From positions 146,288 through 210,287 of the forward strand of contig JARVJZ010000004.1 in the NCBI GenBank assembly GCA_029775855.1: DNA of 64,000 nt. The letters run 5' to 3'. The translations under genes and the position numbers were made by a program. The DNA comes from Nitrososphaeria archaeon (GTDB taxonomy: Archaea; Thermoproteota; Nitrososphaeria; Nitrososphaerales; JAAOZN01). Shown here in pieces: positions 31,742 through 54,058 of the stretch. The notes below the pieces were generated by a model that saw only the letters and a list, made by a program, of their open reading frames with translations, ran no database searches and had not been told where the DNA came from. How positions within the stretch are numbered: the first letter of the stretch is position 1; every line of letters begins with the position of its first letter.

Positions 31742-31833
31742 TGCGGTCGCCGGGATTTGAACCCGGGTCGCGAGCTTGGAGGGCTCGTGTCCTAGACCAG
31801 ATTTTCCGCTTGTCTGCTCTGGACGACGACCGC
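31742..31833 (-). tRNA. tRNA-Gly(TCC) with a 17-nt D-loop intron (about 31802-31818, 15/16) and C33
   Basis: GCGGTCG/CGACCGC-A acceptor; CGAGC-CCTCCAA-GCTCG; removing AGCAGACAAGCGGAAAA restores the D-arm GTCCAG-TCTGGTCTAGGAC. Confidence 0.9.
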
Positions 31834-53086: not shown

Positions 53087-53870
53087 GTGATAAAACTCGA
53101 AACTCGAAGCAGTTGACCTATATGTAGAAGTGGCTGGAAAACAAGTGATAAAAGGCCTTAACCTAACGGTATCTCAAGGAGAAGTCCACGCACTAATGGG
53201 TCCAAACGGTTCTGGAAAAAGCACACTAGCACATACAATAATGGGGCATCCAAGATATAAAGTAAGTAAAGGGGATATACTCTTAGACGGCCAATCCATT
53301 TTAGATTTAACACCAGATCAACGTGCAAGAAAAGGACTATTCTTAGCTTTCCAATACCCCTATGAAATCTCTGGGGTCACAGTAGCCAACTTCTTAAGAA
53401 CAGCTTACAACTCAATACACTACAACGGGCAGAAAGATGTCGGCGCATCATATCTTGAATTCAGAAGGCTTCTAAAAGAGAAACTTAACGCCTTAAAGGT
53501 TGATGACTCATTCGCTGAAAGATATCTTAACGAAGGATTTTCAGGCGGCGAAAAGAAAAGATGTGAAATACTTCAACTGGCGGTTCTAAAACCAAAGATC
53601 GCACTACTAGACGAGACAGACTCAGGCCTGGATATCGACGCACTAAAAATCGTGGCAGAAGGAGTCAACACACTACTAGGCCCAGATATGGGCGTGCTCC
53701 TAATCACGCATTACAACCGTATACTCAAATACATCAAACCAAGATTCGTGCACATAATGATTAATGGCAGAATAGTAAAATCCGGCGGCGAAGAATTAGC
53801 AACCCTACTAGAAGAAAAGGGATACGACTGGCTAAAGCAAACAGCAACCAGCAATACAACAAAAACCTAA
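53087..53870 (+). CDS. sufC: Fe-S cluster assembly ATPase SufC (true start uncertain; in-frame GTG at 53130)
   Basis: [22 protein letters not shown] and DETDSGLD motifs; the in-frame segment [11 protein letters not shown] lies upstream of the ORF-track start. Confidence 0.92.
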
Positions 53871-53899
53871 ATCCACAGCCAACATACCCCTAATACCGC

Positions 53900-54025
53900 G
53901 GGCCGGTCGTCTAGACCCCAACCGGGACAACCACCTCCAGCAAGGTGGTCTAATCTGGTAGGATACCGCTTTGGCAAGTAAACCCAAAGTGGCGGGGGTC
54001 GGGGGTTCAAATCCCCCCCGGTCCA
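53900..54025 (+). tRNA. tRNA-Ala(GGC) with three introns (53915-53930 and 53931-53953 at 15/16; 53977-53989 at 37/38)
   Basis: GGGCCGG/CCGGTCC-A acceptor with G3:U70; each insert can be folded into a BHB-like motif; the spliced product is a canonical cloverleaf. Confidence 0.9.
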
Positions 54026-54058
54026 CTCCCCTCTTTAACCGTTAGCGTTAAGCTGTTT

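Follow-up and report, generated by a model that had tools for sequence, protein, structure and literature searches.

In this work we analysed a window of 64,000 nucleotides from the genome assembly of a Nitrososphaeria archaeon (contig JARVJZ010000004.1; G000:C4:146288-210287, where G000 is the genome, of 1.5 Mb in six contigs with 43% G+C), and we focused on a tRNA-Ala(GGC) gene whose D-loop is interrupted, between G15 and U16, by a 39-nt insert (positions 53915-53953 of the window). We found that the insert is best read as two abutting introns, called here A (upstream) and B (downstream), which have in common a cleavage site between 53930 and 53931 and one helix strand, GGAC. This strand would serve in turn the bulge-helix-bulge (BHB) motif of each intron, and its pairings in the two helices are mutually exclusive. 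To the complete reading, in which a functional tRNA-Ala(GGC) gene carries two abutting D-loop introns that share GGAC and are excised B first and then A, we assign a probability of roughly 0.7. In silico, the anatomy of two introns with a shared strand has good support; the order B then A is a sound deduction from the BHB rules, and the cleavages, their order in vivo and the ligation that would precede the second cut are likewise inferred. The arrangement had been proposed in an original prediction made from the letters of this DNA, and every sequence string and coordinate given there was found correct. The features are listed in Table 1.

The comparison with relatives provides the reference for the spliced product. 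A BLAST search with the 126-nt gene against 40 relatives retrieved three genomes of the same genus (G001, G002, and G003), and an exact-pattern scan of metagenomes returned four stretches: L062 and the identical L065, with A and B; L063, also with A and B; and L064, a chance match outside any tRNA. The inserts of the resulting five variants measure 39 nt in G000, 38 nt in G001, 39 nt in G003, 38 nt in L062, and 31 nt in L063, with intron A of 15-16 nt and intron B of 16-24 nt in the relatives. The tRNA-Ala of G002 (L034) has no insert: its junction is GTCTAGTCTGGTAGGAT, and its canonical intron is kept. The exon junction expected after removal of both A and B is exactly the one present in this insert-less gene. 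Furthermore, the six distinct genes agree at every exon position; it is in the insert and in the loop of the canonical intron that they differ. The concern that the insert could be an assembly artefact can be set aside: homologous inserts are present in G001, in G003, and in three metagenome contigs, and a 418-nt DNA contig from run X3, which belongs to another study, spans 53609-54026 with 0 differences, which argues directly against an artefact.

Then, for each of the five variants, we searched for all the series of up to three excisions able to turn it into the insert-less G002 sequence under a strict BHB rule (a central helix of 4 bp in which G-U counts as a pair, and bulges of 3 nt cut between the second and third nucleotides). 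No variant can reach a G002-type product by one strict BHB excision (0/5), in agreement with the earlier claim that the 39 nt do not leave as a single piece. Removal of B via GGAC/GTCT, followed by removal of A via GTCT(10-13)/GGAC, is the only path of at most two steps in 5/5 variants, and in G000 and L063 it is the only path at all. The further three-step paths (two in G001, ten in G003, and six in L062) consist of excisions of 8-16 nt, none of them common to the variants. In all five variants, the insert splits into A and B at the very point that had been indicated for it, with GGAC common to both helices. It had also been anticipated that removal of A first leaves B without a helix, between two GTCT strands, and indeed none of the strict paths starts with A.

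When bulge offsets from 0 to 4 nt were considered, both proposed helices had 4/4 pairs at the canonical offset in 5/5 variants. One-step excision with the outer cuts fixed was evaluated over the same offsets and was rejected in G000, G001, and G003, where it reaches at most 3/4 pairs. As a control, shuffled inserts gave a strict two-step path to the exact product in 137/3000 cases and a one-step path in 75/3000, which corresponds to p ~0.05 for the two-step path in a single sequence taken alone. Since one sequence alone is weak evidence, the evidential weight comes from the conservation of the path in 5/5 diverged variants.

The two introns differ in the quality of their motifs. Intron B presents the core of a BHB in 5/5 variants, with the central helix GGAC/GTCT (one G-U pair), the bulges AAC and AAT, and canonical offsets. 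Its inner helix has 5-6 bp in 4/5 variants and 1 bp in L063; an outer helix, ACCG/TGGT, needs a 4-nt bulge in G000 and is not conserved in G001. The substitutions among the variants, counted without alignment A1 (where G003 is one column out of register), mostly spare the pairings: GGAC followed by AA or AG is invariant (5/5); GTCT is GTCC in G003, which turns the G-U pair into G-C; and the CACCT/AGGTG stem is CACTT/AGGTG in G003, with the pair kept as G-U. The inner stem is maintained in 4/5 variants with a different hairpin loop in each, and L063, which has lost the hairpin, retains GGAC/GTCT. This helix pattern is conservation consistent with the structure and does not amount to a proof by covariation.

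Intron A had also been described as a BHB intron, and this description holds in part: the central helix and the bulge offsets are present in 5/5 variants, but the flanking helices of a full hBHBh' motif are not, as the inner helix has 1-2 bp and no outer helix was found. From its predicted pairings, intron A is thus to be classified as a helix-plus-loop motif of the relaxed kind, a category that also includes the canonical 13-nt intron of this gene and the intron of a tRNA-Gly gene described below. The canonical intron shares this minimal design, with TTGG/CCAA, one closing pair, and the bulges CA↓A and AG↓T (the arrow marks the cut); in G000, its helix has a probability of 0.96-1.0.

As judged from sequence, the tRNA-Ala(GGC) gene is a functional, single-copy gene of an uncultured hot-spring archaeon from a Nitrososphaerales-level order. 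The acceptor stem GGGCCGG/CCGGTCC and the T-arm GGGGG-TTCAAAT-CCCCC can be read in it, together with the anticodon GGC, A73, and G3:U70, the established Ala identity element (G3:U70 and A73 are also present in the ARAGORN drawing). The identity of the exons in six genes, set against the divergence of the introns, indicates strong purifying selection on the gene. Its 15-nt 5' end has a single match in G000, and the other Ala genes listed carry TGC and CGC. As the organism has no other tRNA-Ala(GGC) gene, its reading of GCC and GCU codons would rely on three small excisions, two of them in the right order. ARAGORN missed the gene in the window, where it called two tRNAs and at least four are present, and the Rfam tRNA model covers 53944-54019 only (31.9 bits). 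Among four in-silico forms, ARAGORN called a tRNA-Ala(ggc) with a 13-nt intron in the one from which both A and B had been removed, and it called no tRNA in the precursor, in the B-less form, or in the A-less form. Standard tRNA finders therefore miss genes of this sort. The runs containing the window are labelled hot springs metagenome.

In the proposed splicing order, GGAC in the primary transcript would pair with the downstream GTCT, at the insert's 3' end, and form a BHB that has a 5-bp inner hairpin and the bulges AA↓C and AA↓U. A tRNA-splicing endonuclease (EndA) of the two-gene heterotetramer type would excise the 23-nt intron B, and RtcB would seal the ends. The freed GGAC could then pair with the GTCT of the D-stem (positions 10-13) in a relaxed motif with the bulges AG↓A and AA↓U; excision of intron A (16 nt) would follow, and the normal D-arm could form, with the D-loop AGUCUGGUA in the mature tRNA. 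Cutting A first would lead to a dead end, since B would then sit between two copies of GTCT and have no helix; the productive order would therefore be B and then A. That such an arrangement acts as a "maturation checkpoint", as has been suggested, is speculation.

The genome encodes enzymes suited to this scheme. Besides RtcB (G000:C1:175556-176863), it contains two single-domain EndA paralogs, located in the regions of C1:250462-250695 and C1:5132-5386 (PF01974 matches in open reading frames [ORFs] of 185 and 180 aa). The 185-aa protein aligns over its full length with PDB chain 3p1z_B (8e-42) and finds its closest matches in the B chains of the heterotetramer entries 3p1z, 3ajv, and 2zyz. 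It has the His of the GIDHAP motif, presumably catalytic, and the 180-aa paralog is without His at the aligned position. In addition, the loop region aligns ungapped, and a Lys of the 185-aa protein aligns with K44 of 3p1z_B, which we assume to be the loop lysine of the Crenarchaea-specific loop (CSL). On the basis of its two genes, the enzyme would belong to the heterotetrameric (alpha-beta)2 type, with one catalytic and one structural subunit. A conserved Lys of the CSL is named in a review, whose available part does not give its position (PMC6379350). According to the accessible portions of two sources, Thaumarchaeota have an alpha2-beta2 EndA, and this type cleaves relaxed motifs (PMC4090602, PMC6379350).

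The original prediction called for folding of both conformers, and the outcome was divided. In constrained folds, the B conformer lies below the A conformer by 8.2 (G000), 3.1 (G001), 8.8 (G003), and 6.0 (L063) kcal/mol, so that B is favoured in 4/5 variants; in L062, the energies do not separate them (-55.8 and -55.4). This equality and the weak BHB of intron A weigh against the reading with two introns excised B then A, as do the following results and the strict shifted helices presented in the next paragraph. The B conformer of G000 is not the minimum free energy (MFE) structure (-55.7 vs -61.8 kcal/mol): the unconstrained fold contains a register-shifted 3x4 internal loop, which is not a BHB. 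The ensemble probability of GGAC/GTCY is <=0.002 in G000, ~0.1 in G001, 0.74 in G003, 0.002 in L062, and 0.005 in L063. In the B-spliced form, the A-BHB conformer and the native D-stem conformer have about the same stability, at 4-12 kcal/mol above the MFE, an excess that for the A conformer is unfavourable. No compensatory double changes were found in any helix, only one-sided changes, among five related sequences, which are few. When one helix mismatch is allowed, the path search returns 145-2579 paths and loses its discrimination. Lastly, in the metatranscriptome runs X7, X9, and X10, no contig over 53903-53964 and no joints were found, a result neutral on splicing itself that we place on the unfavourable side. 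As a control for the energy model, we considered the anticodon stem flanking the undoubted canonical BHB: its probability is <=0.10 in 6/6 genes, intron-poor G002 included, which indicates that the model under-predicts bulged BHB conformers generally.

Among the alternatives, the insert could be a single intron that leaves all at once in a shifted register, through a TAGA/TCTA or CTAG/CTAR helix, with 37-39 nt taken out and a slightly different D-loop left behind. Indeed, TAGA/TCTA, for which the cuts would follow insert nucleotide 3 and U16, is strict in all the variants but G003, which has one mismatch; CTAG/CTAG is strict in the metagenome variants L062 and L063, G000 and G001 having CTAG/CTAA with a single mismatch and G003 neither form; and TCGT/GTGG is strict in 4/5 variants if the product, which is without A14, may differ from the G002 allele. 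Moreover, a D-loop intron of the CTAG type leaves in one step in 5/8 tested genes of other families of the order. Nevertheless, we consider this explanation quite unlikely: no shifted helix is strict in all five variants, G003 having strictly neither TAGA/TCTA nor CTAG, and no convincing inner helix can be read after either of them. The products would have an 11-nt D-loop in which five nucleotides separate G15 from G18 (TAGA/TCTA) or A16 in place of U16 (CTAG), whereas the insert-less gene of G002 reads AGTCTGGTA, and at all other exon positions the six genes agree. The invariant GGAC followed by AR would also be left unexplained.

It is rather unlikely, in our judgement, that there are two introns with no obligatory order, with EndA cutting the three sites independently and ligation coming late, or with B cut after A through a relaxed single bulge. 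The cleavage of relaxed motifs by heterotetramer-type EndAs, as reported in the accessible portions of PMC6379350 and PMC4090602, speaks for such independence, as do the middle site, which by sequence reading is a bulge between two helices in both conformers, and the isoenergetic conformers of L062. The A-less form speaks against it, having no 4-bp helix before the 3' site of B and a predicted MFE fold that buries the 5' junction in a continuous stem, and so does the lack of a strict path beginning with A. If the cuts occurred without ligation of the intermediate, the anatomy would stand and the word "obligatory" would be weakened. Hardly credible is the idea that the gene is a decaying pseudogene, or that the insert is retained and nothing needs splicing. 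The failure of ARAGORN and Rfam to recognise the whole gene would fit it, but none of the 74 exon bases varies across six genomes or contigs whose introns have diverged, the excision helices are conserved, and no other Ala(GGC) gene was found in G000.

Table 1. Features of the tRNA-Ala(GGC) gene in the window (arrows mark predicted cuts within bulges).
Feature	Positions	Strand	Details and basis
tRNA-Ala(GGC) gene	53900..54025	+	126-nt precursor region; 74-nt mature body; no encoded CCA
Exon 1, tRNA positions 1-15	53900..53914	+	Same in 6/6 genes compared
GTCT, D-stem 5' strand (positions 10-13) and 5' strand of the putative central helix of intron A	53909..53912	+	4/4 pairs with GGAC at canonical offset in 5/5 variants
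AG, before intron A	53913..53914	+	Sequence
Intron A, 16 nt, ACCCCAACCGGGACAA, predicted to be removed second; bulges AG↓A (5') and AA↓N (3')	53915..53930	+	
GGAC, shared strand: 3' strand of helix A, 5' strand of helix B	53925..53928	+	Invariant in 5/5 variants
Intron B, 23 nt, CCACCTCCAGCAAGGTGGTCTAA, predicted to be removed first; bulges AA↓C and AA↓T	53931..53953	+	
Inner hairpin of intron B: CACCT (53932-53936), loop CCAGCA, AGGTG (53943-53947)	53932..53947	+	Folds
GTCT, 3' strand of the central helix of intron B	53948..53951	+	GTCT in 4 variants, GTCC in G003; both pair with GGAC
Exon 2, tRNA positions 16-37; opens with TCTGGTAGGAT at 53954-53964	53954..53976	+	
Canonical intron, 13 nt, at 37/38; helix TTGG/CCAA; bulges CA↓A and AG↓T; single closing pair as inner helix	53977..53989	+	ARAGORN i(39,13)
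Exon 3, tRNA positions 38-73	53990..54025	+	Sequence, gene comparison, ARAGORN

Other introns of the genome and of the order place A and B in context. In the window, a tRNA-Gly(UCC) gene (31742-31833, - strand), missed by ARAGORN and scored 27.7 bits, below the Rfam cut-off, has its D-loop interrupted at the same 15/16 site by an intron of 17 nt (31802-31818), which starts after AG and ends with GGAAAA before TCTGG. This intron is kept, with a different loop, in G001 (L099) and G002 (L100), and G003 gave no match at E<=1e-5. In another family, the tRNA-Ala of G087 (L071) has a 24-nt intron at 15/16 that ends with CGGAAAG. From these two cases it appears that A-type mini-introns exist alone and that B does not. 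A relative with intron A alone in tRNA-Ala, envisaged in the original prediction, did not turn up: pattern scans of genome contigs, of metagenomes, and of the order found no tRNA-Ala with only a GGAC-type intron A. The genome-contig scan returned one stretch, with A+B, and the order-wide pattern matched 2/401 genomes, namely G001 (A+B) and G087 (its different 24-nt intron); the range of this pattern, N{8,38}, places the 39-nt inserts of G000 and G003 outside it, hence uncounted.

The 15-nt 5' end of tRNA-Ala(GGC) was found in 305/401 sampled genomes of the order. Tallies of this sample include G107, G259, and G270, which are excluded from sequence-level statements; the genes read order-wide are the fetched loci L031-L098 with L072 left out. 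Seven tRNA-Ala(GGC) genes of other families (L035, L038, L040, L080, L069, L052, and L073) have a D-loop intron at 17/17a with the self-complementary CTAG. When these seven and L071 were subjected to the strict path test, excision in one step was found in 5/8 genes and in two nested steps in 2/8 (L052 and L073), and L071 had no strict path. In L052/L070 (G025) and L073 (G053), 67-72 nt lie between G15 and TGGTAGGAT, near locus position 1501; the strict search can account for them only by two nested introns with the inner one leaving first. Abutting introns needing two steps were found in this genus only, among the genes read. The introns of the other families are similar to A and B in occupying the same loop of the same tRNA and in being mini-modules that end with a 4-nt helix strand and then AA before the cut. 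They differ in lying two nucleotides further 3', at 17/17a, in using CTAG, and in strict one-step excision (5/8 genes vs 0/5 variants in this genus), which is possible there because CTAG is self-complementary.

We also considered how the double intron could have been gained and lost. The flanks of the insert-less G002 gene are mosaic, with the upstream one similar to L062 (74% over 1134 nt) and the downstream one similar to G003 (84% over 1031 nt), and the canonical intron of G002 is identical to that of G003. The mosaic flanks suggest recombination at or within the tRNA gene. Together with the shared canonical intron, they would make loss of A+B in G002 more parsimonious than three or four gains.

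For the origin of the insert, the landing of an intron on an existing splice site, which is speculation, and a repeat resembling a target-site duplication are equally open readings. The insert is flanked by a 6-nt direct repeat (53909-53914 and 53948-53953), which is GTCTAG in exact form in L062 (698-761, - strand) and L063 (555-611, - strand); the 3' copy is GTCTAA in G000 and G001 and GTCCAC in G003. A possible, if doubtful, explanation is that a single element of 32-33 nt was inserted with a 6-bp target-site duplication GTCTAG, the dual helices being a by-product of GGAC lying between two GTCT. The exact or nearly exact flanks in L062, L063, G000, and G001 agree with this, as do the joint lack of A and B in G002, where the canonical intron is kept, and the outcome of the pattern scans, in which a GGAC-type intron A was found alone in no tRNA-Ala. 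On the other hand, the 3' GTCT must pair with GGAC anyway, and the repeat may reflect a splicing constraint only; A-type introns stand alone at 15/16 in tRNA-Gly(UCC) and in the tRNA-Ala of G087; and a BLAST search of the insert against the whole G000 genome matched the insert itself and no other copy, and thus gave no sign of intron transposition within the genome.

More speculatively, and with a rather low probability, the abutting introns could be footprints of intron gain at an EndA site: an A-type intron at 15/16 would have been the landing pad, a second intron, already excised, would have entered the cut 3' splice site by ligation and become fixed in DNA, and GGAC would act as a two-state RNA switch that times both excisions, at the risk of a dead end. 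If this were true, the second intron would survive only because its 3' end pairs with the resident GGAC, and the risk of a dead-end product would be a feature that classical nested introns do not have.

Nested multi-intron pre-tRNAs of Crenarchaeota/Thermoproteales have reportedly been described by Sugahara et al. in 2007 (RNA) and by Tocchini-Valentini et al. in 2009 (PNAS). In nested pre-tRNA introns, according to the parts of the sources at hand, EndA and ligase act in successive rounds, in an order set by which BHB can form (PMC3978253, PMC3728597). The ordered removal of nested or close BHB introns, taken as known when the arrangement was predicted, is indeed already established, within the same limits (PMC3978253, PMC3728597, PMC8450103). 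The Thermoproteales frame adopted there does not fit, as the lineage of the organism is Nitrososphaerales-like. The present gene is thus an example of a kind of sequential splicing already known in archaea, and its particular twist consists of the abutment, the shared site and strand, and the need of B for A. Like the nested Thermoproteales introns, it has several close introns in one pre-tRNA, with the difference that A and B abut and share GGAC. In the nested introns, as far as the accessible text describes them, one intron lies inside another and the last BHB forms only after the others are gone; here, the introns lie side by side with a common cleavage site and strand, and the precursor already contains the two strands of helix A. 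The dependence is inverted, since B needs the GGAC of A and would lose its helix if A left first, and the productive order would still be fixed.

Other systems offer looser parallels. tRNAscan-SE 2.0 iterates for nested or close introns, has a Thaumarchaeota-specific BHB model, and lists 107 non-canonical introns in that group; the available portion of its description contains no abutting, strand-sharing example (PMC8450103). The red alga Cyanidioschyzon merolae also has several BHB introns per pre-tRNA, with intermediates detectable by reverse transcription PCR, but its introns, in the part of the source consulted, form BHBs independently and are not nested, unlike A and B (PMC3728597). Group I/II/III twintrons, as presented in a source available in part, are similar in that the inner intron must leave before the outer one; they are ribozyme introns of unrelated chemistry, with the inner intron inside the outer, whereas A and B are side by side (PMC11782384). 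In a limited literature search, with sources accessible in part, we found no abutting archaeal tRNA introns with a shared strand and an inverted dependence, which is a thin basis for novelty. The gene may be useful in two respects: a 126-nt RNA, two EndA subunits, and RtcB make up a compact substrate for investigating how a broad-specificity endonuclease picks between mutually exclusive helices, and the G002 allele together with the A-only analogues forms a small natural series for archaeal tRNA intron gain and loss outside Thermoproteales.

Some side observations concern the surroundings and the folds of the gene. An ORF ends at 53870, 30 nt before the gene, and a 64-aa ORF (53832-54026, - strand) runs antisense across the whole of it, probably as a chance frame. 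A sigma-70 promoter and terminator scan nearby found none, with models that are not applicable to archaea. In 5/5 variants, G15 and the first four bases of intron A (ACCY; 53914-53918) are complementary to GGGTC in the variable loop (positions 44-48; 53996-54000). RNAfold uses this helix in most of the predicted folds, where it would hide the 5' splice site; the complementarity may be fortuitous.

More in general, G000 is rich in non-canonical tRNA introns, and ARAGORN-type finders will under-count its tRNAs. Outside the window, the tRNA L030 (G000:C6:74728-74818, + strand) has a 16-nt D-loop insert at 15/16 with GCCTAG direct repeats; by hand, no strict one-step BHB was found in it, and the best helix, GGC/GCC, has 3 bp and cuts one nucleotide earlier. 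Further tRNA genes of G000, of 96-163 nt and clearly with non-canonical or multiple introns, are located outside the window at C4:127777-127939 (+), C1:29521-29644 (-), C6:70587-70697 (-), and C1:229636-229731 (-).

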